NCBI GenBank assembly: GCA_965205015.1 | Contig: OZ242029.1 | Coordinates: 2,016,001 to 2,080,000, forward strand | Length of the DNA stretch: 64,000 nucleotides | Direction of reading: 5' to 3' | Source of the DNA: Candidatus Poribacteria bacterium | GTDB taxonomy: Bacteria > Poribacteria > WGA-4E > WGA-3G | In this document: positions 17 to 14,504 of the stretch, piece after piece | Position numbering within the stretch: position 1 is the stretch's first letter | How the letters are laid out: the number at the start of each line of letters is the position of its first letter | The notes under the pieces: generated by a model | The model's input: only the letters and a program-made list of their open reading frames with translations | Told to the model about the DNA's origin: nothing | The model's database searches: none | Made by a program: the position numbers and the translations under genes

Positions 17-227
17 TTTCACAGTAAACCCAAAAATCAGAAAATTCCCAAAGTGGCTCTAAACCCACACTGTGACTGGGTTTTCAAGGGATCGGAATCG
101 AGTCCCAATTTTAAAATTTCACAGTAAACGCCAAAAAATGCAAGACGCGCCAAATGCCTCTCATCCTACACCACACCTATGTTTTGAAAGGGTTACAAAG
201 ACCATTTTGCAAACGCTTACTGTGAAA
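17..227. repeat. Three copies of TTTCACAGTAA (17 and 117 direct, 217 inverted); possible MITE-like element
   Basis: tttcacagtaaac at 17-29 and 117-129; reverse complement ttactgtgaaa at 217-227. Confidence 0.6.
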
Positions 228-381: not shown

Positions 382-822
382 GTGTTACAAAAACATCGGT
401 ACATTCTCATTCTACTCATGGGACTCTTGTACGTGTATTCGGTATGTCCGTTTCTATGTGCAACTTTAGATCAAAAGTCCTGCCACGACGCACCTCAAAG
501 AATCCTGAGTGGGGATACCGATCCCCAATCAACCTGCTGCCAAAGCACCAAACCAAGCACAGCGGGTGAAGCCGAAACTCCATCAGGGAGTGATAATTCG
601 TGCTGCTCAAAAGGTTTAGAACTTGTTCTTCCAGACGATAGATACAACACGCACGAATCCCGTGAATCGATTGAACAGTCTCTCGTCTCAATCCTCCCAA
701 TCTCAGCAACTTTACCTGTTACACCTTGGGAATCCCTCAAGAATTCCCCCGCACCGCTAACCTCCACATTTTTCCCCGACCACGCTCTATCCCATAGAGG
801 TCCTCCGTTTATCCAGTGCTAA
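382..822 (+). CDS. Cys-rich secreted leader protein with C-terminal RGPP motif (DUF2946/CutF/CruR-like putative arrest peptide)
   Basis: GTG start after GGAG; N-terminal hydrophobic segment; CPFLC and two CC pairs; Pro-rich C-terminus ending HRGPPFIQC; first gene of a metal-transport cluster. Confidence 0.7.
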   Translation: MLQKHRYILILLMGLLYVYSVCPFLCATLDQKSCHDAPQRILSGDTDPQSTCCQSTKPSTAGEAETPSGSDNSCCSKGLELVLPDDRYNTHESRESIEQSLVSILPISATLPVTPWESLKNSPAPLTSTFFPDHALSHRGPPFIQC

Positions 823-940
823 GTGAGTTCCACAAGATATCTTAAGCACTATCGTATTCCTTGATCCCATTACTTTTTTCAGAGTGTTTTCCCGAGCCTT
901 CTTTTTATGAAGGTTGGCAAGGAGAATTCTTAATAAACCT

Positions 941-975
941 GTCGCGCGGGGTTTCGTGTCTCGCCGCGCGACTTT
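941..975 (+). terminator. GC-rich hairpin with short U-run between leader ORF and barrel gene (possible attenuator)
   Basis: gtcgcgcgg (941-949) pairs with ccgcgcgac (964-972), followed by ttt. Confidence 0.45.
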
Positions 976-996
976 CAAATAAGAGAAATTAAAATT

Positions 997-2046
997 ATGA
1001 AAATCCGTCTGTTTTTATGCACACTGTTGTTCACTTCGGTATTTATCTCTTTCGGGTTCGCACAAGAAAGTTGTCCCGCTTGAAGTAACCCCGTCTTACC
1101 GCCCAGCGGTCTGATGAATGAAGTCAGTTTGGCTTCACAAGAGATAGATCAGTTTCGAGTGAATATCAATATGTTAGTGTCCCCCGACGCACAAGGTGGA
1201 CATCTTGAATCAAGGGGACTTTCACCAACAGGAAAAGTTATCGACACTCCTTTACATAGACACCGTGTAGGGTTGAGCACTTACCGGATTGATGTTGGGG
1301 TCCAATACTTGCTGAGCGATCGGTGGACGTTGCGAGCAAACATTCCGTATGCCGTCAAAGACCAGGACGCAAGTATTGAGTGGATTGATTCAGTAACTCC
1401 TGAAGATAGGCAAGCGATCTTGCGGAGTCGGGATATCCATCATCGAGATGAAACCTACGCCGGACTTACGGATTCAGATCTGTTTTTGGGTTATAAAATG
1501 CGTGGACTCTTTAAAACCGATGACCTACTGTTTGCGCGGTTGGGCACCACAATTCCGATTGGCAAAACCGAGGAAAATCCTTGGAAACTCGGAGATGCGG
1601 GCATTGAGCATCTCCATATCCAGTTCGGGACCGGCACCTTTAACCCAATTGCCAACTTGCAATACAGTTTACCGCTCTACCGAGGTCTGACGATTATGGC
1701 TTCTACACGTGGAACGTTTCCGTTCTATGAGAACAGCAAGACGTATCGAGGTTCAGTAGAGTTAACTTACACAGCTGGCTTTATGTATCGCCTTTCGGAT
1801 TGGTTTTCATTTAACGGGAACTATCTCGGATTTTATCAATCCCCTGCCGCTTGGGCTGGGGAGCGGGACATCAACACAGGGATGCGTTATAGCATGGCAG
1901 CACTCGGTATGTCCATAGTAACGCTAAACGACATTTCCGTGTCTGCCAATGTCATGTTTCCGCTGACGCAAGAAACCCTTTACGATGGCGGCGACGCAAT
2001 TGAATTTGGAACTTTGGTCTCTTTGGCAACAACCTATTCATTTTAA
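997..2046 (+). CDS. Outer-membrane beta-barrel protein with N-terminal CxxU motif; putative selenoprotein (in-frame TGA 1081-1083)
   Basis: ATG 997 is in frame with ORF 1114-2046 and reads MKIRLFLCTLLFTSVFISFGFA-QESCPA*SNPVLPPSGLMNE...; signal peptide, amphipathic strands, terminal Phe (TTYSF), His-rich loops. Confidence 0.7.
1092..1116 (+). promoter_or_regulatory. Candidate bacterial SECIS hairpin
   Basis: accgc(1098-1102)/gcggt(1106-1110) extended by cgtc/gatg; alternative fold cag-CGGU-ctg (1104-1113); directly 3' of the in-frame UGA. Confidence 0.4.
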
Positions 2047-2058
2047 AAGGAGAAAAAA

Positions 2059-2688
2059 ATGAAAATGAAATTGACACGGCGAATCCTCGCCTCTTTCATA
2101 GCAATTACAACCGTGCTACTGTTCTCAATCCTTTCACTTAAGGCAGAGAACGCACACAAACACGATAAAACCCATCAGCACGGTGATCACGCAGCTGCTG
2201 GTGAAAAAGTGCGTTGCACATTTAGTGGCATGATGATGAAACCTTCAGCGATGGTCAAAGTCGAACAGGACGGAAAAGCCTACTATTTCTGCAACGACAT
2301 GCAGGCAGAGATGTTCAAGGCGAATCCTGATAAGTACCTCCAGACAATTTCAGTGGGAAATTTGACATTCGATCTCAACGTGCTAACGACAGATGCATAC
2401 AAGATGATGATGTCTCACATGGGAATGGGAGGCATGATAAAAACTGACGAGATTCAGGGAAAAACGCACTATTTCAGTGTGTACCCGACGCAAGATCATG
2501 GGGAGATTGCGTTAGGTGATGTTAAACTCGCCATTCAGGTTACCAATGCCGAAGGGGAAACGAGGATGGCATTACTCAAATATAGCAAAATGACGCGGAC
2601 CTATGAGGGGTTCATTGTTATACCAAAGGGTGAGAAACACGAGGTGCGCATTCGGGTAACCAGCCCAGCTGTCAAAATTTTGCTTTAA
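2059..2688 (+). CDS. Secreted His/Met-rich YHS-domain-like metal-binding protein
   Basis: AAGGAG RBS, signal peptide, HKHDKTHQHGDH, CTFSGMMM...GKAYYFC...FKANPDKY (YHS-like), MMMSHMGMGGM. Confidence 0.8.
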   Translation: MKMKLTRRILASFIAITTVLLFSILSLKAENAHKHDKTHQHGDHAAAGEKVRCTFSGMMMKPSAMVKVEQDGKAYYFCNDMQAEMFKANPDKYLQTISVGNLTFDLNVLTTDAYKMMMSHMGMGGMIKTDEIQGKTHYFSVYPTQDHGEIALGDVKLAIQVTNAEGETRMALLKYSKMTRTYEGFIVIPKGEKHEVRIRVTSPAVKILL

Positions 2689-2690
2689 GG

Positions 2691-2830
2691 GTTGTCAATT
2701 GTCGGTTATCAGTTATCGGTCAAAGAGGGCTCTGATAGCAATCTTCCCCACCTTGGAATACGCCAGCGCGCGGTAAATTGTTACAGAGCAGCTTCTTAAC
2801 TGACGACTGACAACTGATAACTGACGACTA
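2691..2830. repeat. Intergenic element bounded by inverted heptamer arrays
   Basis: gtcggttatcagttatcggtca (2701-2722) versus aactgacgactgacaactgataactgacgac (2798-2829). Confidence 0.7.
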
Positions 2831-2847
2831 TTAACAAGGAGACCATA

Positions 2848-4200
2848 ATGCGTACAGTCAGGCTACGCCATCAAGTGACGGCAATTGTTATCGGCAGCAT
2901 GCTGGTGTTGGGTGTTCTGATGCAAACGGAAGCACATGGAATCACTCAGACAACACCAACGCCAGAACAAACCGATACGACAACCCTATTTGCTGAAACC
3001 CTTGAACTGCCGAATCTAATTCAGGTCGCTGTCGATCGGAATCCTAAAGTTAAAGCCGCAAAGGCACGGTGGCAGGCGACGATTGAGCAGTACCCACAAG
3101 TGACAGCATTGCCCGATCCGATGTTCATGTATGGCTATTTCTTACGGAGCGTGGAGACGCGAGTGGGACCGCAACGGCATCGGGTTAGCTTTTCACAAGC
3201 GTTTCCATACCCGGGCACCCTTGATGCAGCCGGACAGGTCGTCAAAAAAGCGATCGAAATTGAACGCGTGAAGCACGAGCAGGTAATACGGAATCTCATT
3301 GTTGAACTGAAACTGAGTTACCACGAGTTAGCGTATCTCCAGCGGGCAGTCGAACTGACACGACAAAACCATCAACTGATAGCCTCTATTCTCGCGATTG
3401 CCACAACTCGTTATGCCGAAGGGGAAGCGATACTCAATGATGTATTGAAGGCACAAAGTCAACTCGCTCAGTTAGAATACGATCTCGTCCTGCTGGAGGA
3501 ATTGCAGCGCGTTGAACATGCGAACATCAATGGAATCCTGTCTGTTCCTTCAACAACGCCGCTTGGCGCAACGGCACCTGTTGCCTATGAACCGCTTGAT
3601 GTGACGTTAGCCGATATTGAAAAACAGGCACTATCAAAGCGACAGGAGTTGCGAATTGCAGCGCTAACCATCGAAAAAGCCACCAAAGGGATTGTCCTTG
3701 CTGAACTCCAAACGAAACCCATGCTTAAGTTTGACTTAATGACAGTCGAAACGGGTAAAGCCTTGATGTTCGACACACCCGGCAGTGGTAAAAACCCATT
3801 TAGCATCGGGTTTGGTGTGACAATTCCGTGGTCAAGTTTGAAGAACAGCAGCAAAGTTCGCGAGGCGCAGCAAAACCGTGAGACTGTCACAGCGAACAAG
3901 CGCGCCTTGGAGGACGAAACGAAGGTTACCCTCCAAAAGATTTATTTTCGCCTTGAAAACGCGCGGCGGCTGATCGATCTCTATGAGACGACACTCATTC
4001 CGCAGGCGGGTGCTGCTATTGAGGTGGCGGAGACATGGCATCAAGAGGGACCCAAAAGCATAGCCGGATTCCTTGAGACGCAGAGTGTTTGGTTGAATTT
4101 TAATCTTGCTCGCCTACGTGCGATGGCAGACTATCAACAGAATGTAGCTCGATTGGAACGTCTGGTTGGGGGAAGGATCGATGATTCACAGAACCCTTAA
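2848..4200 (+). CDS. TolC-family outer membrane efflux protein (CusC/CzcC-like)
   Basis: NPKVKAAKARW...LPDPMF...SQAFPYPG motifs; OEP-type helical repeats; context. Confidence 0.9.
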   Translation: MRTVRLRHQVTAIVIGSMLVLGVLMQTEAHGITQTTPTPEQTDTTTLFAETLELPNLIQVAVDRNPKVKAAKARWQATIEQYPQVTALPDPMFMYGYFLRSVETRVGPQRHRVSFSQAFPYPGTLDAAGQVVKKAIEIERVKHEQVIRNLIVELKLSYHELAYLQRAVELTRQNHQLIASILAIATTRYAEGEAILNDVLKAQSQLAQLEYDLVLLEELQRVEHANINGILSVPSTTPLGATAPVAYEPLDVTLADIEKQALSKRQELRIAALTIEKATKGIVLAELQTKPMLKFDLMTVETGKALMFDTPGSGKNPFSIGFGVTIPWSSLKNSSKVREAQQNRETVTANKRALEDETKVTLQKIYFRLENARRLIDLYETTLIPQAGAAIEVAETWHQEGPKSIAGFLETQSVWLNFNLARLRAMADYQQNVARLERLVGGRIDDSQNP

Positions 4201-5758
4201 AATCGGTCTCATAGTGCTCACTGTTTTGGTAGGCGGGTGTGCCAGTCAGCGACTGGAAACCTACCAAGAGTTACGTAGCACTGAGATACAACGACCGGCA
4301 TATTACTATACCGAAGTCGAAACAGAGGTTTCCGATACGGAAAGCGAATCGACCGTGGAAACAGACCCATTTCTCAGCGAGATTGAAGCGAAGGTGTTGA
4401 AATACCAGAAACAGTGGCAAGCGCAATTGGAGAGTGAAACACCAGTACCCAATCTGTTTTACGATTTTTCAACGGACACCATGAAGGCACATCGACGATT
4501 GGCAGCATCACCGGAAGCAGCGAGAACCCAGCTTGCCCAACCTATTGTGCTGGAACTCCTCATAGCACTTGGATATGAATGGAACCCAGGTTTGAAAGCT
4601 GCCCATGAAAAAATTCGAGCGGTGCTGGAGCAGTATCCGCAAGCTGTTTACTTAGAAAATGTGTTACGTCAGTATAACGCTTTCACAAAACAACTGGATA
4701 CAAAAGTGGGACCGTTGACCCATAAAGAGATGACGGCAATGAAATTTCCGTTTCCAGGGACCTTGGCGTTGAAAGGGCAAGTTATTACTGAAGATGTGCG
4801 AATCGCCAAAAAAGAGTTCGAGATCGCATTACGGGATTTGGTGACCGAGATTAAGCTAGCTTACTACGATTATCTTTTTCTTACTGAGACAACCCATATT
4901 AACGAAGAAAATCAGGAACTACTAAAGCAGATGATTGCTATTGCGCAGGCGAAGTTTCGTGTTGGACAGGGCAAATATTCAAACCTCATTATGGCGCAGG
5001 TGGAATTAGCGAAATTGGCAGATGCAATTATTACACTTGAACAACAACGAGAAACTGTTATGGCACGCATTAATACATTGTTAAATAGTGCTGTGGATTT
5101 GCCATTAGGGGACCCTATGCCCGTTGAAGAAGATCGCGTGACACCTACTTTAACTGAGTTGTATGCGTTAGCAATTAAGAATCGTCAGGAGATTCAAAAA
5201 CAGAAATTGGCAATCAGTAAGATGGCTTTGGTTGTGGAGATGGCAAAGCAAATGACATATCCTGACCCGACGCTCGGGGCAAGTTACTTTGAAAATCGGA
5301 GCATGCCTGACTTGAAACACACACAAAAAATGCCGAGCACTTTTATGGCGCAACGTACATTAAATGCAAAGAATACAGCAGGGTTCGGACACCGAAATTC
5401 GTATATCCATGAAATGGGTGTAAAGATTGAGGCGATGGAGCACCAAATTGAGAAACTCGAAAGCGATCTCCGCTTTGTTGTGAAAAAACATCATTTTGGA
5501 ATGGAGACAGCAAATCGGAGTATTCGCCTTTATCGTCAGACACTACTTCCGCAAGCACAGCAGGCGTTGAGTGCCGCGAATACAGCGTATCAAGCGGCGC
5601 AAATTGACTTTTTGAGTTTCCTGGATGCCCAACGCACTTTATTAAATTTGAGGATTGAAGAGCAGCGGGCGCTGCGTGATTACCGCCAACACCTTGCACA
5701 GTTAGAACAGGCAGTTGGTATGATATTGCCCAAACAACCATTGATCCGAGGTTTTTAA
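4181..5758 (+). CDS. Second TolC-family outer membrane efflux lipoprotein
   Basis: ATG 4181, lipobox-like LVGGC, FPFPGTL, FLSFLDAQRTL...LEQAVG; overlaps previous gene. Confidence 0.88.
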   Translation: MIHRTLKIGLIVLTVLVGGCASQRLETYQELRSTEIQRPAYYYTEVETEVSDTESESTVETDPFLSEIEAKVLKYQKQWQAQLESETPVPNLFYDFSTDTMKAHRRLAASPEAARTQLAQPIVLELLIALGYEWNPGLKAAHEKIRAVLEQYPQAVYLENVLRQYNAFTKQLDTKVGPLTHKEMTAMKFPFPGTLALKGQVITEDVRIAKKEFEIALRDLVTEIKLAYYDYLFLTETTHINEENQELLKQMIAIAQAKFRVGQGKYSNLIMAQVELAKLADAIITLEQQRETVMARINTLLNSAVDLPLGDPMPVEEDRVTPTLTELYALAIKNRQEIQKQKLAISKMALVVEMAKQMTYPDPTLGASYFENRSMPDLKHTQKMPSTFMAQRTLNAKNTAGFGHRNSYIHEMGVKIEAMEHQIEKLESDLRFVVKKHHFGMETANRSIRLYRQTLLPQAQQALSAANTAYQAAQIDFLSFLDAQRTLLNLRIEEQRALRDYRQHLAQLEQAVGMILPKQPLIRGF

Positions 5759-5781
5759 TCCATTGAAAAGGAGTTCACAAA

Positions 5782-7578
5782 ATGCCTAAAAATTTCTGCT
5801 TTGCAACTGCACTCATAATGACTGTGCTTTTCGGATTCAGCTGTAATCAGCCAGAGAACACTAAAATGGAACATCATGTTAGTAGCAAACTTGAAACAGT
5901 ATCAGAGGATACTTCGAGCATAGATGAACACGCCAACCATACCGCAAGAGGGACATCCTCAGACGAAGCCAAAACGATCCGTTACTGGACATGTGTTATG
6001 CATCCGACGGTCAAAATGTCAGAACCTAACAATTGTCCAGTTTGTAAGATGGATCTGATTCCCATTTACGAAGGATCAGGACTGGAACTCACTGAGCAAC
6101 AAAAGGCGCTGATTCCAGTGCGTACTGAACCTGTTGCGTTCCGTGAGGTTTCCCGCGAAATTCGAACCGTCGGTGTTCTGGATTATAATGAGACCCGTAT
6201 GGCGTACGCTTCAACACGAATCTCCGGATGGATTGAGGACTTGCACATTGATTTCACAGGTATCAACGTGCGTGAAGGCGATGAGCTTTTATCTATCTAC
6301 AGCCCGGAATTGGTCACAGCGCAAGAAGAATACTTGACGGCACTTAAAAGCATTGAGGAACTGCAAAATACAGAATACGCTACACTTCGAAAATCAGTTG
6401 AACAGACCCTTACCGCTGCAAAATCCAAACTTGAATTATACGGATTGACCTTAGACCAGATTGAGGGGATACGCAACCGCGGAGAGGTCAGTACAACCTT
6501 ACCCCTGTTTGCACCGATAGCTGGTACTGTGGTTCACATGAACGTCACGGAAGGTCAACACGTGAACAAGGGGATGAATCTTTATCACATTGCCGACCTC
6601 AGTAGCTTATGGATTATGGCAGACGTTTACGAATATGAACTGCCTTGGATCTACATGGCGCAAGCGGTTGAAATTACGACGCAGTCGATGCCCGGACTAA
6701 CGTTTTCTGGTAAAGTCTCCTACATTTATCCATTCTTTGATGCCCAAACGCGGACCCAAAAAGTCCAGATAGAAGTCGCCAATCCCACTGGACGACTCCG
6801 CCCCGGGATGTATGTAACGCTTCAAATGAAGCCTACACTCGCAGAGATCTATACGCAAGGAGCTGTCTCGAATATTGCATCCGAGCCAATATCTGAAACA
6901 GAAGGGAAGTGGTCGTGTCCTATGCATCCAGAGGTGCAGTCTGATGAATTCGGAGAGTGTTCTATCTGTGGTATGGACCTCGTCGAAAAACAGGAGACCG
7001 AAACGGGAGGAAAATGGTCGTGTCCTATGCATCCAGAGGTGCAGTCTGACGAATTCGGAGAGTGTTCTATCTGTGGCATGGACCTCGTCGAAAAACAGTC
7101 AACTGATGCGCATTCTCACGGACATCAGTCTTTCACCTCGCCGACTGTTCCAGCAGATCAACCGCCACTAATTTTCAAATATGTGTGTCCTGATGATCCG
7201 GATGAATATGCGACCGTACCCGGCCTATGTCCACGGGACGGAAAACCCCTCCTTATGACAGGTGAAGTTTTAACTGTACCCAAAAGTGCAATCATTGACA
7301 CCGGTTTACGGAAGATTGTCTTTGTGGATCGGGGCGAATCAGGTTATGAACAAGTGGAAGTTGAAGTGGGTCCTGAGGCTTGGGGTACATCGAGCGGCTC
7401 AGAAACCAAACGCCGATACTATCCTATTGTGAGTGGGCTTACCCCTGGCGATATGGTTGTCACCCATGGCAACTTCCTGATAGATTCGCAGACGCAATTA
7501 ACAGGCTCCGCATCAGGGGCTTATGGCGGGGCACTCGGCGATGATGAATCAAAAGTATCGCCTGTCCATCAACATTAA
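5782..7578 (+). CDS. cusB: Efflux RND periplasmic adaptor (CusB-like) with multiple heavy-metal-binding domains
   Basis: WTCVMHP..CPVCKMDL, 2x WSCPMHP..CSICGMDL, YSPELVTAQEE, LRPGMY, GNFLIDSQ. Confidence 0.9.
   Translation: MPKNFCFATALIMTVLFGFSCNQPENTKMEHHVSSKLETVSEDTSSIDEHANHTARGTSSDEAKTIRYWTCVMHPTVKMSEPNNCPVCKMDLIPIYEGSGLELTEQQKALIPVRTEPVAFREVSREIRTVGVLDYNETRMAYASTRISGWIEDLHIDFTGINVREGDELLSIYSPELVTAQEEYLTALKSIEELQNTEYATLRKSVEQTLTAAKSKLELYGLTLDQIEGIRNRGEVSTTLPLFAPIAGTVVHMNVTEGQHVNKGMNLYHIADLSSLWIMADVYEYELPWIYMAQAVEITTQSMPGLTFSGKVSYIYPFFDAQTRTQKVQIEVANPTGRLRPGMYVTLQMKPTLAEIYTQGAVSNIASEPISETEGKWSCPMHPEVQSDEFGECSICGMDLVEKQETETGGKWSCPMHPEVQSDEFGECSICGMDLVEKQSTDAHSHGHQSFTSPTVPADQPPLIFKYVCPDDPDEYATVPGLCPRDGKPLLMTGEVLTVPKSAIIDTGLRKIVFVDRGESGYEQVEVEVGPEAWGTSSGSETKRRYYPIVSGLTPGDMVVTHGNFLIDSQTQLTGSASGAYGGALGDDESKVSPVHQH
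6910..7098 (+). repeat. Intragenic tandem duplication (84 nt unit, 105 nt period) of a heavy-metal-binding domain
   Basis: 6910-6993 and 7015-7098 identical except two synonymous changes. Confidence 0.95.
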
Positions 7579-7587
7579 GGCTCAGAT

Positions 7588-7647
7588 AAGAGGCGTTGTT
7601 AAACGAAAATCTCTTAACCGATAACTGATAACCGACAACCGATAACC
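7588..7647. repeat. Heptamer array (aaccgat/aactgat/aaccgac) element upstream of cusA
   Basis: aaccgataactgataaccgacaaccgataacc 7616-7647 preceded by aagagg...ctctt. Confidence 0.7.
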
Positions 7648-7650
7648 ATT

Positions 7651-10600
7651 ATGATTAACCGAATTATCGAAATCTGCATGAAGAACCGCCTGTTGGTGTT
7701 AGTCATCTTTGTCTTTGTCACAATGACGGGTTGGTGGGCATTGAACCAGACCCCAATTGATGCTATGCCCGACATCGGTGAAAACCAGGTCATTGTCTTC
7801 GCCGATTGGCCCGGACGAAGTCCACGGGATATTGAAGATCAGGTTATCTATCCCTTGAGTATTACCCTGCTTGGAATCCCCGATGTCAAAGATGTTCGCT
7901 CGACTTCCATGTTTAGTTTTGGCTACATTAACATTATCTTTAAAGATGATGTTGATTTCTATTGGGCTCGTACACGGGTACTGGAGCGAATGAATCTGGC
8001 ACAAAGGGACATGCCGGACGGTGTTGTGCCGATCCTCGGTCCCGATGCAACGGGCGTTGGACAAGTGTTTTGGTACACCGTTGAGAACGGGTACTATTGT
8101 CCGAATCATCCGACGAGACGCTATGCGAAGCCTGGTAAATGCCCGGAAGATGGTGAAACGCTTATTGCCTCCAATCTGGAGCTTCATGAACTTCGGACAC
8201 TCCAAGACTGGACGGTTCGTTACTATCTCGCCTCTGCTGATGGCGTTTCCGAGGTCGCCTCGGTCGGTGGATACGTCAAACAGTATCAGATCGACATCGA
8301 TCCGAACACTTTATTGGCGTATGATGTGCCGTTATCAATGGTTTACAACGCCGTCCGAGGGAGCAACCTTGATGTTGGTGCCAAGGTTATTGAGGAAGGC
8401 GGAATGGAGTTCCTAATTCGCGGCTTAGGTTTCATCAAAAGCATCGCGGATATAGAAAACATCGTTGTCAAGGAGCATAACGGCGTACCCATCTACGTCA
8501 AAAACCTTGGAACAGTCAGCGAAGGTCCCGACTTTCGGCGTGGTGCTTTGGACAAGGCTGGAATCCCCGCAACCGGTGGGGTCGTTCTCATGCGCTACGG
8601 TGATAACCCACTGCGCGTCATTGAGAACGTCAAGGCGAAAATAGCGGAACTCACACCTGGACTTCCACCCGGCGTCCAAATTGTACCATTCTATGACAGG
8701 AGCCATCTCATTCACCGCGCAACGGACACGCTGAAAGAAACATTGACGGAGGAAATCATCGTCGCGGCGGTTGTTATCCTGCTTTTCTTAGGACAAGTTT
8801 CAAGTAGTCTCATAATAGCACTTGTCTTACCGATGGGAGTTCTCCTGTCGTTTGTAGGTATGCGGATTATCGGTTTACCTTCAAACATCATGTCAATGGG
8901 TGGCATCGCCATCGCAATTGGCGTTATGGTGGATGCAGGTATTGTAATGACAGAGAATATCGCGCGACATTTACGGGAACCCCATGCAGGCGAAAGCAAG
9001 CTGCAAGTTGCAACGCGTGCCGCTAAAGAGGTGGGTCCACCTATCTTCTTTGCAATGCTCATTGTTATTGTTGCATTCATACCTGTTTTTTCTCTTACCG
9101 GTCAAGCGGGTAAACTTTTCAAACCGCTTGCCTATACAAAAACGTTCGCTATGATTGGGGCAGCACTTTTGGCGATTAGCCTTGTGCCGGTTTTAGCCTC
9201 ATTTCTACTCACGGACCCAACCCGTACCCCGACGGGTATGATTTCCAAGTGGGTGGCACGGTTCTTTTCACTACTCAGCTGGCCCCTAAGAAAGTTAGCG
9301 GATGGGATTACATGGATACTCAGAACTCTCTATCGTCCGATTATTCGATTGGCTGTAAGAAATATTTGGACCAAACTCGCTGTTGTTGTTTTAGCGGGAT
9401 TGGCTTTTGTCGCAAGTATACCCTTGACGCCTTTCTATAAAAATATTGGACAAGAATTCATGCCGCCACTTAACGAAGGCGCATTGTTGTTTATGCCGGT
9501 GCTGCTCCCGGGTGCCTCGATTACGCAAGCGAAAGATGTAATGGCGAAACAGGACTTGATTATGAATCGATTCCCTGAGGTTTCACTTGTCGTTGGAAAG
9601 TTGGGGCGAGCGGCAACAGCAACCGACCCTGCCCCAATTGGCATGTTTGAAACCATTGTCAATATAGTTGACCCAGCAGAGTGGCCCCGACGGGCTATTA
9701 AACATAATTCGACAAGGGAACTCGTACACCACCTCGTCCAACGCTTAAAACGCCAGGAACTGATGAGTGAGGAGCATGTAAACCATATTAACACCGAGTT
9801 TCTGGATGACATTGTTAAAGCTGCCATAAAACGGTTTGATACCTTGGCGACGACATACCATAATTCTTATCTGTCAGTTGATGCGCGCGAGAAACTCTAT
9901 CGAATCTGGTTATTACGAATCCTTTTGGAGGAGCTCCTCTCCGAAGAGCGAACAGGCGCAATGGGATTGGAACAGGTCAGAATTGGAGAATCTGAGACAG
10001 AAACGAAACTTCATCGGATTGCCGAGGAAATTGAGCCGACCCTCAAGCATAAAACTTATTTTCGGACCAAAAACCGCAACGAACTTATCACCGAACTGAC
10101 GGAGGCGACCCGGATGCCGGGGGTTTCCCCTATTATGACGCAGCCCATACGCAATCGTGTTGATATGCTCGCGACAGGTATACAGACGCCAATTGGAATC
10201 AAAGTGTTTGGGAAAGACCTCGCCAAGATTGAAGAGATCGCAGTGCGGATTGAGCAGGAACTCCTTAAACTTCAGGGAGCACAAGGTCCCTATGCCGAGC
10301 GCATTGGGAATAAGCCGTACCTTGAATTTCACATCGATCGAGAGGAAGCCGCCCGCTACGGCATCCAAATCAAAACAGTTCAACAAATCATCATGACAGC
10401 GATCGGCGGCATGAATTTAACCCATACCGTTGAAGGGCGGGAGCGATTTCCAATTCGTATCCGGTACATGCGAGAATTACGGGATAATATTGAAGCACTC
10501 AAGCGTGTACTTGTGCCAACACCAAAAGGGCTACACATTCCACTTGAGCAACTCGTAAAAATCGAAAGACGACCGGGGCCCGCGAAGATCGCAAGCGAGA

Positions 10601-11319
10601 ATACGCTCCTCTTTTCCCGCGTTTTTTGTGATGTAGATGTTGACACGATTGGGCTGGTTGATTTTGTCACATTAGCCCAAAAAACACTTGATGAGAAAAT
10701 TAAGCCAACCTTGCCCCAAGGCTATTTCTACGCCTTTAGCGGACAGTATGAAGCGGAACTTGAAGCCCGCGATCGATTAACAATTGTTGTGCCGGTATGT
10801 ATTGCCGTCATCTTTATGTTGCTGTACCTCCAGTTCAAGTCACCGTCTGCGATGTTTTCAATCTTCCTTGCGATTCCCTTTGCATTCATCGGGGGTATGT
10901 GGATGCAGTGGTTGATGGCATACGTGCCAGAAGCACTCGGCGGCGGTTACGCTATTAAATACAGTACGGCAGTATGGGTCGGATATATAGCCTTGTTTGG
11001 CATAGCCGTCGAAGATGGAATCGTCTTAATTGAATATCTACTGCAGCGAGTCCGGAGTGGTGAACCTATTGATGAAGCGGTAATCAATGCCGGCTTATTG
11101 CGTGTCCGCCCTATCATCATGACCACAGCAACTACAGTCTTGGCGTTATTGCCGATCATGTTAGCAGAAATTAGCACGACTACCGGCGCAGAATTAATGA
11201 AGCCCATCGCGGTCCCTACCTTCGGTGGTATGGTCTCGGCGACGGTGGCTAACCTTATCTTGGCACCCGTGTTATTTTCTCTCTTCTATCCGATTGAGCA
11301 TTGGATTCGCCAACGGTAG
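7651..11319 (+). CDS. cusA: CusA/CzcA family heavy-metal efflux RND permease
   Basis: PIDAMPDIGENQVIV, LGPDATGVG, NIMSMGGIAIAIGVMVDA, EFMPPLNEG, RVRPIIMT. Confidence 0.95.
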   Translation: MINRIIEICMKNRLLVLVIFVFVTMTGWWALNQTPIDAMPDIGENQVIVFADWPGRSPRDIEDQVIYPLSITLLGIPDVKDVRSTSMFSFGYINIIFKDDVDFYWARTRVLERMNLAQRDMPDGVVPILGPDATGVGQVFWYTVENGYYCPNHPTRRYAKPGKCPEDGETLIASNLELHELRTLQDWTVRYYLASADGVSEVASVGGYVKQYQIDIDPNTLLAYDVPLSMVYNAVRGSNLDVGAKVIEEGGMEFLIRGLGFIKSIADIENIVVKEHNGVPIYVKNLGTVSEGPDFRRGALDKAGIPATGGVVLMRYGDNPLRVIENVKAKIAELTPGLPPGVQIVPFYDRSHLIHRATDTLKETLTEEIIVAAVVILLFLGQVSSSLIIALVLPMGVLLSFVGMRIIGLPSNIMSMGGIAIAIGVMVDAGIVMTENIARHLREPHAGESKLQVATRAAKEVGPPIFFAMLIVIVAFIPVFSLTGQAGKLFKPLAYTKTFAMIGAALLAISLVPVLASFLLTDPTRTPTGMISKWVARFFSLLSWPLRKLADGITWILRTLYRPIIRLAVRNIWTKLAVVVLAGLAFVASIPLTPFYKNIGQEFMPPLNEGALLFMPVLLPGASITQAKDVMAKQDLIMNRFPEVSLVVGKLGRAATATDPAPIGMFETIVNIVDPAEWPRRAIKHNSTRELVHHLVQRLKRQELMSEEHVNHINTEFLDDIVKAAIKRFDTLATTYHNSYLSVDAREKLYRIWLLRILLEELLSEERTGAMGLEQVRIGESETETKLHRIAEEIEPTLKHKTYFRTKNRNELITELTEATRMPGVSPIMTQPIRNRVDMLATGIQTPIGIKVFGKDLAKIEEIAVRIEQELLKLQGAQGPYAERIGNKPYLEFHIDREEAARYGIQIKTVQQIIMTAIGGMNLTHTVEGRERFPIRIRYMRELRDNIEALKRVLVPTPKGLHIPLEQLVKIERRPGPAKIASENTLLFSRVFCDVDVDTIGLVDFVTLAQKTLDEKIKPTLPQGYFYAFSGQYEAELEARDRLTIVVPVCIAVIFMLLYLQFKSPSAMFSIFLAIPFAFIGGMWMQWLMAYVPEALGGGYAIKYSTAVWVGYIALFGIAVEDGIVLIEYLLQRVRSGEPIDEAVINAGLLRVRPIIMTTATTVLALLPIMLAEISTTTGAELMKPIAVPTFGGMVSATVANLILAPVLFSLFYPIEHWIRQR

Positions 11320-11345
11320 AAGATATATATCAAATGGGAGGAGTC

Positions 11346-11960
11346 ATGAAACTTCTAACGACATTCAGCACCTGCATACTCATCACTCTTATCGGGTTTC
11401 CATCTGTTGGCACTGCGCTTGAATTTGAAAAATACTTACATGTTGCAAAAGGTAGTGTAATAAGCAACGGTCGCGGATTAGCGATCACCGATGACGAACT
11501 GGAAACCGCACGCACTGAAGAGTTTTCAGTGGGGTTTCAATTGATGCCTGCCCTTCGGTTCTCAGTTCCATTCGGCAGTTACACCGTGGATACCCGCGCT
11601 GGCAACGCCGATGTCCTGCCCTTTGGAACGTTGAATGTTGAGACCGTTGGTATGATGTTGACTTTGAGTGGACGTGGGAAGTGGGCACCATTTATTGGAC
11701 TCGGAACAAATTTCTATGCCTTTTCTGAACAATTTGCTGCGCCTGCAAATATCGAGAACACTTTTGGCGCCGAAGCGTCTACTGGACTCAACATAAGACT
11801 TATCGACAGCATTTTCGAGGTGGCACAGTTATACGGATCGTTCGGCTATCAGTTCAGTTTTTTAAGACCGGGGATTAGCGTTCCTACCAGACCTGACGTT
11901 GAAGCGTTATCGTTAAACCGACATAGCATCACCTTCCGATTAGAAATCTTAGGATTATAG
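11346..11960 (+). CDS. Small outer-membrane beta-barrel (OmpW/porin-like)
   Basis: GGAGG RBS before ATG 11346; signal peptide; WAPFIGLGTNFY, FGAEASTG, YGSFGYQFSF strands. Confidence 0.6.
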   Translation: MKLLTTFSTCILITLIGFPSVGTALEFEKYLHVAKGSVISNGRGLAITDDELETARTEEFSVGFQLMPALRFSVPFGSYTVDTRAGNADVLPFGTLNVETVGMMLTLSGRGKWAPFIGLGTNFYAFSEQFAAPANIENTFGAEASTGLNIRLIDSIFEVAQLYGSFGYQFSFLRPGISVPTRPDVEALSLNRHSITFRLEILGL

Positions 11961-12093
11961 CGAAGGTATTAAGGTGTCCAAGGGCTGTGGCTGGCTTAAA
12001 CGGTGATCTACAGTAAAAGTCTTGCAAAAATAAAGATTTCTGGTAAACTTACGCATACTGATGAAGACATATAACGCTATAAGGAGATTATAG

Positions 12094-13071
12094 ATGTTTT
12101 TCCAAATCTGTCGGGGTCCTCGAACAAGTATTCTGTTAGCACTTATTTTTTTCATACTGAGCATGCCACTACTCAGCAACGCTCGTGAAACAAACGGGGA
12201 CGATCAAAAACTGGCGGCTATTTTCCCAAAAGCCAAGAAATTTGTTCAACGGAACCCCGTTTTGACGCCAGACCAGACAGTTTCTATTGAAAAGCAACTC
12301 GGAATTAAACTTCAATCGGAAGACCTGAAACCGATTTTCTACATTCCAATCAGCGAAAAAAAGAAACCTATGGGCTTGGTGTTGTTTACTGATGTAAAGG
12401 GACCCAGGGGCGTTATTGAAGGGTCCGTTGGATTGGATATGCGAGGGAAAGTCGTAAAAGTAAAAATTTATGAACACAAAGAATCAAACGCTATTACGGA
12501 AGAGGAATTTCTTCAGCAGTTCATCGGTATGGGTATAGACAATGCTTTTAAGGTGGGAGTGGACGTTGAAGCTATTGACGGGTATGAAGACGCTTCAAGC
12601 GGGGTCGCTCTAATTCCGAAAAAAACGTTGGTAATGAGTTATGCCCTCTTCCTAAAACAGGAACCGAGGTCTGATGCCGAAGAAGCACCAATGCCTGAGG
12701 CACCAGAGGAAGAATTGCCTGAGGCTGAAGACTTAAAAACTCTTATGGCGTTGATGATAGATGACTATTTTGTGGTCGTCGATTATTTTGATGAAAAGGA
12801 GAGCAAAACCAAAGCCATTCGAGCCGCAAAACGACTCGCTAAATATGCAAAAGGCATTTCAAACTTCGAGCCACCCAAGAATGCAGATCAAACCGAAGAG
12901 TATACCTACTTACAAGACACATTTAGCGAAAACCTCCTCAAATTCGCTGAAGCACTTCAGACAGAAGGTATTTCTGACGAAACGCGCAAACAGTGGGACG
13001 CTATCGTTACTTTAGTCAATCAGGCACACCTCCGATTTAGTGAGGAAGAGATTGATTTGGACACGTATTAG
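12094..13071 (+). CDS. Secreted FMN-binding-domain protein fused to a cytochrome b562/c'-like four-helix bundle
   Basis: VKGPRGVIEGSVGLDMRGKVVKVKIYEHKES...FLQQFIG (FMN_bind-like); C-terminal DLKTLM...EPPK...VNQAHLRF. Confidence 0.65.
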   Translation: MFFQICRGPRTSILLALIFFILSMPLLSNARETNGDDQKLAAIFPKAKKFVQRNPVLTPDQTVSIEKQLGIKLQSEDLKPIFYIPISEKKKPMGLVLFTDVKGPRGVIEGSVGLDMRGKVVKVKIYEHKESNAITEEEFLQQFIGMGIDNAFKVGVDVEAIDGYEDASSGVALIPKKTLVMSYALFLKQEPRSDAEEAPMPEAPEEELPEAEDLKTLMALMIDDYFVVVDYFDEKESKTKAIRAAKRLAKYAKGISNFEPPKNADQTEEYTYLQDTFSENLLKFAEALQTEGISDETRKQWDAIVTLVNQAHLRFSEEEIDLDTY

Positions 13072-13115
13072 CTGCGAGTGCTGCAGCTGTTGGTTGAATT
13101 TTGATTGGAGACAGT

Positions 13116-14504
13116 ATGAGAAAGTGGATATATTATTTGTGTATCGTCAGTCTATTGGTGTGCACATTGCCAACATCGGCACAGGTGCGTCCGCCTCGAC
13201 GGAAACACAGGATCATCGTGGATCCGGGGGCGAAGAAGGAAAAGCCCCTCGAGGCGGATATAGGGGCAAACCTTAAGGACATCGCAAAACGCGCAACGCA
13301 GCACGCTCAGAATCCAAAGGTGGATGTCGTCTTCGTTGTTGACGGTGGAAAACAGATGTTGGGACATCTCGCCGCCCTTGAAAAAAGATTTGTCGATATG
13401 CTCACCGTTATAGAGGCGAAAACGATGGACTACAGATTCGCCTTGGTGGGTTTCCATTCAGTATACGGAGAGCCACGCGTCAATTTCCATCAATGGACAT
13501 TTGACTATCTCAATATTGAAAAAGCTTTTCGGGAGATGCGAGTCGAATCCGGAAACAACATTGAATCTGGGTATGGACTCGATGCTATCATTAAAGGCTT
13601 GAACGAGTTGGAATTCCGAGAAGACGCAAGAACGCAATTCGTTGTGGTGGCCGACGCTCGGCTGCGCACCTCATGGACAGAAGCAAAGGCGAAAAATAAA
13701 ATTAGCCAACAGATTATCGACCTTTGTCGCAGAAACAGTGTACAACTCAACTGCATCGGTATTAGCGAAAAGGTACAAGCGGAACTGACTGATGAAACGA
13801 ACGGTGTTTGGTATCCGATTGATTCAAACCAGCGGAAGATGGATGGACAGCGTATTCGGAGCGGTGCGACAATTGCCGACAAGGCACTACTTAGGATTGA
13901 TGGCTTGTTTAAACGTATTGCCGAGAATCTGGTTGCGAGTAACCCTGGTAAAGTGGACGTTGTGTTCGTCTTTGATTACAGTCTGAGTATGCAAACCAAG
14001 ACGGATCCCGCATGCGACGGTTTGGATCTCATGGTCTCTGTGTTCAACACGGCCGGATTAGATTACCGATTTGGGATTATCCGGTTTTGGGCGGCAGTTG
14101 GGGGCGGCGAAAGTACGATTGTTGTAACCAAACCGCCCTTGGAAGCAGAGCAGGTAAAGTCGCTATTTCGCCTCCCAAAAAACGGCGATGAGCATCTATT
14201 GGATGCCATCATGGAAGGCGTGCCAAAACTCCGCACCGAAGAAGGGCGTAACCTCGTCCTTATCATCGTCACAGATGAACCAACAAGCAAACGATCAGAA
14301 AAAGGGTATACCGCGGGCAAAGCAATTTCAGTATGTCGAGGGGCGTTTGCTCGGGTTTACGTCATCGGCGGGGTTACCTCCATGCGAAGCAACTCCATCG
14401 GAGATAATTTCCAACGGCAGGTCGCTCAGGTAACCAAAGGTGAACACTATATTATGCCGGGGGCATTGGCAAGGCAGGGCGTTGGGGCTGATGAGCGGCG
14501 GTAA
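13116..14504 (+). CDS. Secreted tandem vWA-domain protein
   Basis: Two KVDVVFV.D repeats (DGGKQM, DYSLSM), DYRF, LIIVTDE; signal peptide. Confidence 0.8.
   Translation: MRKWIYYLCIVSLLVCTLPTSAQVRPPRRKHRIIVDPGAKKEKPLEADIGANLKDIAKRATQHAQNPKVDVVFVVDGGKQMLGHLAALEKRFVDMLTVIEAKTMDYRFALVGFHSVYGEPRVNFHQWTFDYLNIEKAFREMRVESGNNIESGYGLDAIIKGLNELEFREDARTQFVVVADARLRTSWTEAKAKNKISQQIIDLCRRNSVQLNCIGISEKVQAELTDETNGVWYPIDSNQRKMDGQRIRSGATIADKALLRIDGLFKRIAENLVASNPGKVDVVFVFDYSLSMQTKTDPACDGLDLMVSVFNTAGLDYRFGIIRFWAAVGGGESTIVVTKPPLEAEQVKSLFRLPKNGDEHLLDAIMEGVPKLRTEEGRNLVLIIVTDEPTSKRSEKGYTAGKAISVCRGAFARVYVIGGVTSMRSNSIGDNFQRQVAQVTKGEHYIMPGALARQGVGADERR

Follow-up and report, generated by a model that had tools for sequence, protein, structure and literature searches.

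In the 64-kb stretch of Candidatus Poribacteria DNA analyzed here (the window, 64,000 nucleotides in length), nine co-oriented genes, separated by short gaps or overlapping their neighbors, occupy positions 382 to 13071 of the + strand. An earlier reading of the letters alone (the sequence-only reading) had taken these nine genes for one coupled metal capture, redox, and export system. All nine are indeed present, and seven of the nine labels given to them hold, with those of a “small barrel” for gene 8 and an “FMN_bind/b562-like” fusion for gene 9 staying weak. We favor, as the more probable interpretation, a modular metal-handling locus of Candidatus Poribacteria rather than a single nine-gene machine; its conserved core probably comprises just two genes, coding for a cysteine-rich leader and a predicted outer-membrane beta-barrel. 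The end coordinate 13071 is arbitrary because a further co-oriented gene (gene 10) comes 29 nt later. Neither a tRNA nor an Rfam family was detected within the window. The genes are as follows.

382-822, + strand: gene 1, a 146-aa cysteine-rich leader with a GTG start and no Pfam or NCBIfam match.
997-2046, + strand: gene 2, a predicted outer-membrane beta-barrel of 349 aa and putative selenoprotein, with the TGA at 1081-1083 taken as read through.
2059-2688, + strand: gene 3, a 209-aa exported, His/Met-rich YHS-domain protein, the first gene of a heavy-metal RND cassette (genes 3-8).
2848-4200, + strand: gene 4, outer-membrane factor 1, OEP family, TolC-like, 450 aa (OEP E 2.9e-37, 129 bits).
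4166-5758, + strand: gene 5, outer-membrane factor 2, OEP family, 530 aa (OEP E 5.6e-31, 108 bits).
5782-7578, + strand: gene 6, a CusB-type periplasmic adaptor (HlyD_D23 E 2.5e-73, 246 bits; HMBD E 1.9e-35, in 3 stretches).
7651-11319, + strand: gene 7, a CusA/CzcA-family RND pump of 1222 aa (TIGR00914, 938 bits versus a cut-off of 701).
11301-11960, + strand: gene 8, which closes the cassette and encodes an exported protein of 219 aa that may be a small outer-membrane barrel.
12094-13071, + strand: gene 9, a 325-aa exported protein with a sub-threshold RnfG/FMN_bind-like N-terminal domain and a helical C-terminal domain.
13101-14504, + strand: gene 10, a co-oriented VWA gene 29 nt past gene 9 and a conserved neighbor of it.

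Gene 1 encodes a small protein with an N-terminal hydrophobic anchor, a set of conserved cysteines, and a C-terminal R-G-P-P motif. Its N terminus, read from the sequence and not by a signal-peptide predictor, consists of a K, H, or R followed by about 20 hydrophobic residues, and the C22, P23, and C26 of a C-P-x-x-C motif are located within this hydrophobic segment. C34, CC52-53, and CC74-75 follow, giving a C-P-x-x-C, C, CC, CC pattern of seven cysteines at fixed spacing with two CC pairs. The R-G-P-P motif occupies residues 139-142, four codons ahead of the stop, in the C terminus ...HRGPPFIQC. The protein is conserved over its full length in 53 related loci (29 to 83% identity), and across the 54 copies the residues C22, P23, C26, C34, C52, C53, C75, R139, P141, and P142 are invariant. 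The motif reads RGPP in 53 copies and RAPP in one and is succeeded by two or four variable residues; the distance from the last CC to its arginine is 63 to 66 residues in all 54. R[AG]PP occurs five times in the six-frame translation of the window, and only the leader's occurrence is 15 residues or less from the end of an open reading frame of at least 60 aa. In every one of the 53 loci holding upstream DNA, the leader lies upstream of the barrel gene. Its relatives in database searches number 237 proteins, which in these searches are Poribacteria-type sequences only; none of the 120 matches listed of the 237 carries a source annotation or a precomputed Pfam family. The motif and the RNA features between it and the proximal part of the barrel gene are listed below.

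796-807, + strand: R-G-P-P codons of the leader (AGA GGT CCT CCG), a candidate ribosome-arrest site.
823-996, + strand: leader-barrel spacer of 174 nt, with a post-stop hairpin, a C-rich, G-poor tract, and a GC-rich hairpin.
About 825-840, + strand: post-stop hairpin, family-wide, beginning 3 nt past the leader stop.
941-972, + strand: GC-rich hairpin with weaker covariation.
1092-1116, + strand: candidate selenocysteine insertion sequence (SECIS) hairpin 1, beginning 8 nt past the UGA.
1119-1137, + strand: candidate SECIS hairpin 2, GAAGUCA-GUU-UGGCUUC.

Several parallels to the leader are provided by known arrest peptides. CruR (Bp2923) of Bordetella pertussis and CutF of Rhodobacter capsulatus have been described as copper-sensing arrest leaders of the DUF2946 family (PMC9426467; PMC9973294; 10.1101/2025.02.05.636593). 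In the account given of CruR, a CXXC motif and RAPP control a downstream receptor gene via Rho-dependent termination, with a 162-nt spacer (PMC9426467); in that given of CutF, periplasmic copper is sensed during export, resulting in a longer stall and the opening of a stem-loop (PMC9973294; 10.1101/2025.02.05.636593). The direction of control thus differs between the precedents, copper relieving the stall of CruR and prolonging that of CutF. CutF-like genes are reported to occur upstream of OEP, CusA, and CusB genes (PMC9973294). More generally, RAPP and RGPP are reported as strongly avoided in proteomes, yet enriched at the C termini of small exported proteins, which lie upstream of metal, TonB-receptor, and thioredoxin genes, and RGPP is described as giving the most robust arrest in reporter assays (PMC12992588).

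As far as these published descriptions permit comparison, gene 1 is like CruR and CutF in encoding a small protein (under 150 aa), in being the first gene of a metal-homeostasis operon, and in combining an N-terminal export signal or anchor with a cysteine motif at fixed spacing from the arrest motif. The RAPP of CruR and the RGPP of gene 1 both occupy residues 139-142, three and four residues before the end, respectively, and both are followed by a long structured spacer (162 nt in CruR and 174 nt here). Gene 1 differs in having no DUF2946 match, in its C-P-x-x-C, C, CC, CC pattern as opposed to one CXXC, in a cysteine-to-motif spacing of 63 to 66 residues versus 45 in CruR, and in the gene that comes next, which encodes a predicted selenoprotein barrel where the precedents have a TonB receptor or a multicopper oxidase. 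The wider set of RAPP/RGPP arrest peptides (ApcA, ApdA, ApdP, and a Streptomyces set; PMC12992588, PMC10987492, PMC10951233) shares the C-terminal R-[AG]-P-P near the stop, in small secreted or membrane proteins encoded upstream of the gene presumably controlled, whereas the gene 1 family is restricted to Poribacteria-type sequences in our searches and is a candidate by its sequence. The proposal of an RGPP leader is borne out in that gene 1 has the C-terminal RGPP and displays, in its sequence, all the hallmarks of CruR/CutF-type arrest peptides. Its standing as an arrest-peptide candidate is well supported at the sequence level, and ribosomes translating gene 1 most likely stall at the RGPP; the family is new, but its kind has been described before. 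With about 64 residues between CC and RGPP, the chain would be long enough to span the ribosomal tunnel plus a translocon, which would fit CutF-like periplasmic sensing. A related Poribacteria genome also has a separate DUF2946-like leader (L080, 1348-1737), which is His-rich, contains CAAC, and has RAPP 12 residues from its end; it scores 20.5 bits, below the cut-off, and a His/Asp/Glu-rich exported protein comes next. It would mark a second metal locus in Poribacteria as a candidate for arrest control.

The spacer that separates the leader from the barrel gene is 160 to 205 nt long in 39 of 53 loci, and most of the others are longer through insertions. Compensatory changes are seen in 6 of the 7 pairs of the post-stop hairpin, and when two helices were scored jointly for covariation, none of 500 shuffles reached their score. 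Among the predicted pairs of the spacer, 2 of 10 show compensatory changes, both in the GC hairpin at 941-972, and the window spacer's own fold has a z of -2.12. Two alternative helices around the leader stop codon found no covariation support, and RNAalifold predicted no pairing between the RGPP codons and the barrel start region. Over its first approximately 55 nt the spacer is C-rich and G-poor (C 24% versus G 9%), which is what Rho loading sites look like. Twelve loci (L001, L004, L011, L013, L016, L018, L019, L023, L024, L026, L035, and L037) have about 80 to 250 nt of extra spacer sequence, with spacers of 259 to 425 nt versus about 180; these may be small mobile insertions and would separate the arrest site from the barrel start. 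Single contigs of 2.3 to 2.7 kb from RNA libraries of close relatives (two studies) bridge the leader, the spacer, and the barrel, with those of one study reaching the YHS gene. A contig of this sort is no proof of a single transcript, or of transcription at all, and the bridging amounts to a weak expression hint; the absent or patchy cover over genes 4-9 says nothing either way.

Gene 2 starts at ATG 997 with a signal peptide (MKIRLF...GFAQE), followed by S-C-P-A-U-S-N-P-V-L-P-P, in which U denotes the TGA at 1081-1083, codon 29. The label of a CxxU barrel is confirmed insofar as S-C-P-A-TGA-S-N-P directly follows a signal peptide, with the frame, the signal peptide, and C-P-A-TGA-S-N-P recurring in all 53 related loci that contain this DNA. 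In these loci, the cysteine codon of the motif alternates between TGT and TGC, and the TGA is never a sense codon or another stop. In other phyla, 11 loci have the N-terminal DNA, of which nine show U-x-x-U with two UGA codons, one C-A-S-U, and one C-P-G-C (L064). Eleven of 13 distant full-length representatives read C-x-x-C-[SGRQ]-N-P straight past the signal peptide, and the remaining two have W at the U position, which we take as a TGA rendered as tryptophan by the gene caller. The gene is not the pseudogene that would have undone the sequence-only reading, given the retention of frame, motif, and TGA in 53 of 53 loci and the existence of cysteine homologs. In our judgment, the in-frame TGA is almost certainly a selenocysteine (Sec) codon. 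Elsewhere in one Poribacteria chromosome, there is a second, partial barrel copy (L056, in the same genome as L034; residues 197-310, 78% identity).

Two further lines of evidence bear on the decoding of this TGA, namely, the RNA that follows it and the Sec machinery of these bacteria. The hairpins past the UGA in the window fold with a z of -3.16, and none of 200 shuffles folds as well. Across the gene, synonymous-codon entropy reaches its minimum (0.055 bits versus a gene mean of 0.84 bits over 54 orthologs) in an 8-codon window 13 to 20 codons past the UGA, on hairpin 2, and in hairpin 1 the stem codons are constrained while the wobble position of the loop is free. In the distant Sec forms, most minimum-energy folds have a GC-rich hairpin 10 to 14 nt past the second UGA, with a GGUC loop in three. 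In related genomes, selB was found in five of five, selA in four of five, selD (each time with an in-frame TGA) in five of five, and tRNA-Sec in five of five, all above the curated cut-offs, the single selA miss being attributable to a fragmented assembly. The tRNA-Sec gene of Poribacteria lies about 40 nt past selB (L072; G001:C1:1917522-1919548). Poribacteria SelD has an in-frame TGA (K-C-A-G-U-A-S-K; L073), and therefore the selenium-donor enzyme would itself be a selenoprotein; the SECIS element of this SelD provided no usable template for comparison.

The barrel family has 407 representatives at 50% clustering (E 0.001 or better). All of the 120 listed database homologs were called without a signal peptide, and most are 310 aa long, starting just past the TGA. 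Pfam matches are sub-threshold (Toluene_X, 16.6 bits versus 29.7; OMP_b-brl, 17.8 versus 28.7), and at the Pfam gathering score the barrel does not qualify as a member of the FadL/TodX and Phenol_MetA_deg outer-membrane transporter families, PF13557 being precomputed on 5 of the 120 listed homologs. No NCBIfam model matches the barrel or two of its cysteine forms, and a family profile found no relative, and nothing useful, among PDB sequences. In metal-related selenoproteins (UxxU HMA-like NF041115, MerT-like, and YHS-domain proteins; PMC13188914, PMC9312934), as far as those accounts describe them, Sec likewise replaces cysteine in a CxxC-type motif, cysteine homologs exist, and UxxU forms have two UGA codons 9 nt apart. 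The barrel differs from these in placing the motif at the very N terminus of a mature, predicted outer-membrane beta-barrel. The sole outer-membrane barrel in the selenoprotein tables consulted is GSU2204/MtrB-PioB (NF041027), to which gene 2 is unrelated, with no match. A search by term of the main text of two selenoprotein reviews, and literature searches aimed at the barrel, found no description of it as a selenoprotein. As far as our searches reach, it would be an uncatalogued selenoprotein family and the most novel element of the locus.

Clues to the function of the barrel come from its conserved residues and from its partners in other phyla. Five histidines (H69, H89, H148, H149, and H205) are invariant in 46 diverse members. 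The C terminus, ...TTYSF, has an aromatic final residue, as is usual in outer-membrane barrels; a crude amphipathic scan, given little weight, counts 12 to 14 beta segments. In 10 of 10 distant loci with upstream DNA, a co-oriented gene directly upstream of the barrel codes for an HMA-thioredoxin protein (WCxxC) with a signal peptide; this assignment has Pfam support for five loci and was read from translations in the other five. One family representative is a barrel fused to an HMA domain. In the fetched loci from outside Poribacteria, the barrel never adjoins an RND pump, and no RGPP/RAPP leader stands ahead of it. Because of the HMA-thioredoxin partners, the barrel-HMA fusion, and the invariant histidines, we favor soft-metal binding or hand-off as the role that the N-terminal Cys/Sec pair would play at a predicted histidine-lined channel.

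The cassette that follows the barrel in the window is a CusCBA-type set, in that a CusA/CzcA pump, a CusB-type adaptor, and an OEP factor are encoded together. Pfam confirms the labels of a YHS-like protein, two outer-membrane factors, and a multi-HMBD adaptor, the YHS match of gene 3 (E 2.7e-6, 27.7 bits) lying just below the cut-off of 30.3. Genes 4 and 5 are 30% identical to each other and overlap by 35 nt, and gene 5 has a lipobox-like VGGC, read from the sequence. In the adaptor, HMBD copies 2 and 3 are a tandem duplication 105 nt apart (6895-6993 and 7000-7098, 99 nt each, 94% identical); among 31 orthologs, 17 have three copies, 13 have four, and one has five. Alignment to E. coli CusA (3t51) reveals two insertions in the product of gene 7, one of 25 aa with four cysteines (Cys4) at about aa 147-171 and the other of 131 aa at aa 679-809. 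The Cys4 insert is HMBD-like (22.5 bits, just below the cut-off of 23.6), in agreement with the description of gene 7 as a CusA with an inserted metal domain, to which TIGR00914 at 938 bits attests. Gene 8 overlaps the end of the CusA gene and comes after CusA in relatives too; it has no Pfam or NCBIfam match and is unrelated to gene 2, and a language-model lead to OMP_b-brl clusters is the sole support for a barrel, so the “small barrel” label remains weak.

The likeness to E. coli CusCFBA extends to the pump, the adaptor, and the OEP factor. The locus differs in having a YHS protein instead of CusF (none of the nine proteins matches a CusF family in Pfam or NCBIfam), two outer-membrane factor genes whose products are 30% identical, three to five HMBD copies in the adaptor, two inserts in CusA, and an extra small exported protein overlapping the end of cusA. 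The pump is a decorated Cus system. Where present, the cassette probably exports the same class of metal as that handled by the core pair. Our literature searches found no description of Poribacteria metal efflux.

For gene 9, labeled an FMN_bind/b562-like redox module by the sequence-only reading, that assignment remains weak. The protein scores 19.0 to 19.6 bits against FMN_bind (PF04205) versus a cut-off of 22, with the match confined to profile positions 3-36 of 77, and reaches E values of 0.018 to 0.05 against RnfG chains in the PDB. The flavinylation motif is [S/T]-G-A-[S/T], and no SGAT or SGAS motif is present among 15 aligned orthologs; the corresponding region reads A-S-S-G-V-A-L in the window and A-S-N-A-V-A-L in most of the 15. 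Residues 205-325 have no match to Pfam or to a b562 family. This C-terminal domain has invariant M218, M221, and H312, about 91 to 94 residues apart, which resembles the Met7/His102 pair of heme ligands of cytochrome b562. These residues are compatible with a b562-like heme site. Relatives of gene 9 are of the Poribacteria type only, and nothing ties the gene functionally to the pump.

The modularity of the locus is apparent from a set of 54 Poribacteria-type loci. In 35 of these, the barrel is followed by genes 3-8 (30 complete through CusA and 5 cut by contig ends); in 16, gene 9 comes next, either directly or past a YtkA-like gene, and gene 10 comes after it, often with a CxxCH-containing gene of 510 aa in between; two have other genes in this place, and one is too short to tell. 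Gene 3 is not similar to the YtkA-like gene found in species that lack the cassette here. The order of genes 1-8 is kept in the 30 loci with sufficient DNA, and genes 8-12 are arranged as in the window in all three cassette-bearing genomes checked. Genes 9 and 10 keep their position irrespective of the cassette and belong to the backbone. On a quick maximum-likelihood tree of the barrel, cassette-bearing and cassette-less loci are interspersed, well-supported branches forcing at least six changes, and cassette presence is no more clustered than in shuffles; the window's nearest relatives on this tree are one locus of each arrangement. A close CusA (94% identity) is present in two cassette-bearing genomes, and none was found at E 1e-100 in five genomes with a cassette-less locus; looser matches, listed for three of these five, are at best 26% identical in two and 35% identical, elsewhere in the genome, in the third. 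Because of these locus counts, the barrel tree, and the CusA searches, we regard the leader-barrel pair as the persistent unit and the RND cassette as an exchangeable add-on. The neighborhood check called for by the sequence-only reading thus upheld the synteny of genes 1-8, in 30 loci, and not their constancy, with genes 3-8 occurring in just 35 of 54 loci and genes 9 and 10 independent of them.

In one cassette-less locus, the 510-aa CxxCH gene between genes 9 and 10 (L003, 13094-14626), which is absent from the window, shows a weak match to a GEGP di-heme family in the N-terminal ~110 residues or so of its product, the long remainder of which is barrel-like. In a close relative (L002), the product of the gene upstream of the leader (5793-8177) is a leucine-rich-repeat protein of 794 aa that has a Por secretion tail, and no regulator gene adjoins the locus.

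Taking these findings together, we propose that gene 1 encodes a small, membrane-targeted, cysteine-rich protein and that the ribosome making it would stall at the RGPP, two to four codons from the stop. On the model of CutF and CruR, metal on the exported cysteine cluster would alter the duration of the stall, which in turn would regulate, by way of the structured 174-nt spacer, the transcription or translation of gene 2. The barrel would then be made only if the UGA at codon 29 is read as Sec, with the hairpins directly downstream serving as the SECIS. The mature barrel would begin Q-E-S-C-P-A-U-S-N-P, and its Cys-Sec pair, at a channel lined by invariant histidines, would be either a binding site for a soft metal (Cu(I), Ag(I), or Hg(II)) or a site of redox hand-off. 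In 35 of the 54 loci, the six-gene heavy-metal RND cassette is set between this core pair and the backbone genes. We infer the stalling, the identity of the metal, and the direction in which it is transported, as well as any link to selenium supply.

Each part of this scheme has alternatives. Gene 1 might mainly be a working membrane protein, for example a MerT/MerF-like soft-metal binder or carrier employing its vicinal cysteines and the C-P-x-x-C of its membrane helix, with RGPP as a structural or sorting motif. This would account for the conservation of the whole 146 aa and not the tail alone and for a conserved cysteine set including two CC pairs, vicinal cysteine pairs being typical of mercury transporters. 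Some of our results do speak against an arrest leader: gene 1 has no match to DUF2946 (PF11162) even at a permissive E of up to 5; a six-frame PF11162 search of related genomes led to a different small CxxC...RAPP gene, which is not an ortholog of gene 1 and shows no detectable similarity to it; the window's own copy of the post-stop hairpin has a 2-nt deletion and pairs poorly; the helix folded by the window's own spacer has no covariation support across the family; and gene 1 could have its own job as a membrane metal-binding protein. Against a purely structural or sorting role stand the reported avoidance of RAPP/RGPP in proteomes and its enrichment at the C termini of small exported proteins upstream of metal genes (PMC12992588), the invariance of RGPP (with one RAPP) while the two to four residues after it vary, and a fixed Cys-RGPP spacing and long structured spacer that match the layout described for CruR and CutF (PMC9426467; PMC9973294). 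We consider such a primary role in the membrane unlikely, and it and the arrest-leader reading are not mutually exclusive. For the barrel, it is highly improbable that the TGA is a true stop, with the protein starting at ATG 1114 as in public annotations and the upstream frame being a relic or a mini-ORF. The annotation of all 120 listed homologs without a signal peptide, mostly at 310 aa, is what such a stop would predict, and the case for a SECIS has its own weak points: there is no match to an Rfam SECIS family, or to any Rfam entry in 780-1260 even at E 10; the loop of hairpin 1 (CCA) lacks a G; that of hairpin 2 lies 44 nt past the UGA, farther than in typical bacterial SECIS elements; post-UGA fold energies equal those of shuffles in 8 of 10 distant Sec forms; and the Sec machinery of the window's genome is inferred from its relatives. 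Yet a barrel without a signal peptide could not get to the outer membrane, the frame, signal peptide, and motif are kept in 53 of 53 loci with the TGA never becoming TAA or TAG, cysteine homologs continue uninterrupted through the motif, the RNA downstream of the TGA is under strong constraint, and the relatives possess the Sec machinery.

With the TGA read as Sec, the main rival to a role for the barrel in metal handling is a pure redox one, in which the Cys-Sec pair would serve thiol/selenol redox chemistry, or else the uptake of a sulfur or selenium compound, and not metal transport. The partner in other phyla always has a thioredoxin domain with WCxxC, and CxxU and UxxU figure among the classic redox motifs of selenoprotein tables (PMC13188914); the same partners, however, also carry an HMA-type domain, one barrel family member is fused to an HMA domain, the Poribacteria neighbors are YHS or YtkA-like proteins and a Cus-type pump, and the barrel has five invariant histidines. 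On balance, we find a redox or uptake role doubtful. Equally doubtful is the idea that all nine genes form a single coupled capture, redox, and export system in which two translational controls tie metal handling to selenium. Their common orientation with short gaps or overlaps, the kept order of genes 1-8 in 30 loci, and the constant arrangement of genes 8-12 in the three cassette-bearing genomes are in its favor, as is the dependence of barrel synthesis on Sec supply, which follows because the UGA stands at codon 29. Opposed to it are the lack of genes 3-8 at the locus in 16 of 54 cases, the want of a close CusA at E 1e-100 in the five cassette-less genomes, the scatter of the cassette on the barrel tree with at least six changes, the persistence of genes 9 and 10 without it, the finding of no RND pump beside the barrel in the fetched loci outside Poribacteria, and a gene 9 that is below the FMN_bind cut-off and has no SGAT-type motif. 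The observation behind the sequence-only reading largely stands, and a leader that stalls and a barrel that contains Sec are well supported as far as sequence can support them; the coupling of nine genes into one system, the redox module, and a selenium-metal coupling are not supported by these analyses.

Outside the genes, two candidate elements lie upstream of the leader.

292-321, + strand: sigma-70-like promoter match, TTGCAA-18-TATAAT (10 of 12 positions), 60 nt ahead of the leader GTG.
17-29 (+ strand), 117-129 (+ strand), and 215-227 (- strand): 13-nt motif TTTCACAGTAARC, upstream of the promoter-like site of the leader.

The promoter match is the best in positions 1-2900 by consensus only, and the count of matches in the region is not above that in shuffles; more generally, the promoter and terminator scans did not exceed shuffles. 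The three matches to TTTCACAGTAARC are the only ones in the 64 kb, a number reached in none of 100 shuffles, and two of the copies are exactly 100 nt apart. The motif is not conserved, since no exact copy exists in 82 fetched loci. Within the cassette, runs of a CTGAYAA-like heptad occur at 2686-2723, 2799-2831, and 7614-7651, that is, right past the YHS stop (as the reverse complement) and immediately ahead of the OEP1 and CusA start codons, with the arms at 2686-2723 and 7614-7651 being 87% complementary. The element is found on many unrelated RNA-library contigs at high depth and therefore looks like a common intergenic or 5′-leader repeat of these bacteria.

More tentatively, and with less expectation of being right than on the points above that we favor, we postulate that the barrel founds a multi-phylum family of outer-membrane channels, in which an N-terminal Cys/Sec or di-Sec pair would act as a soft-metal gate or hand-off with an HMA-thioredoxin partner. 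In Poribacteria, such a channel might be gated serially, by a metal-sensing RGPP leader and then, about 270 nt on, by SelB recoding, so that expression of the channel, and of the pump where present, would be set by metal and selenium together. If both predictions are true, arrest control by RGPP/RAPP, shown so far for a few copper genes, reaches through this leader into an uncultured phylum of sponge symbionts and acts on a gene for a selenoprotein; the cysteine architecture of the leader is outside the coverage of DUF2946. The presence or absence of the cassette offers a natural comparison for the standalone role of the leader-barrel pair. Gene callers truncate the barrel, as is evident from the missing signal peptide in all 120 listed homologs. 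If our interpretation of gene 2 is true, the prokaryotic selenoproteome would gain a new family of 407 representative clusters, with UxxU, CxxU, or CxxC at the mature N terminus of an outer-membrane channel, and selenium chemistry would take place at the outer membrane, linked to the handling of soft metals.

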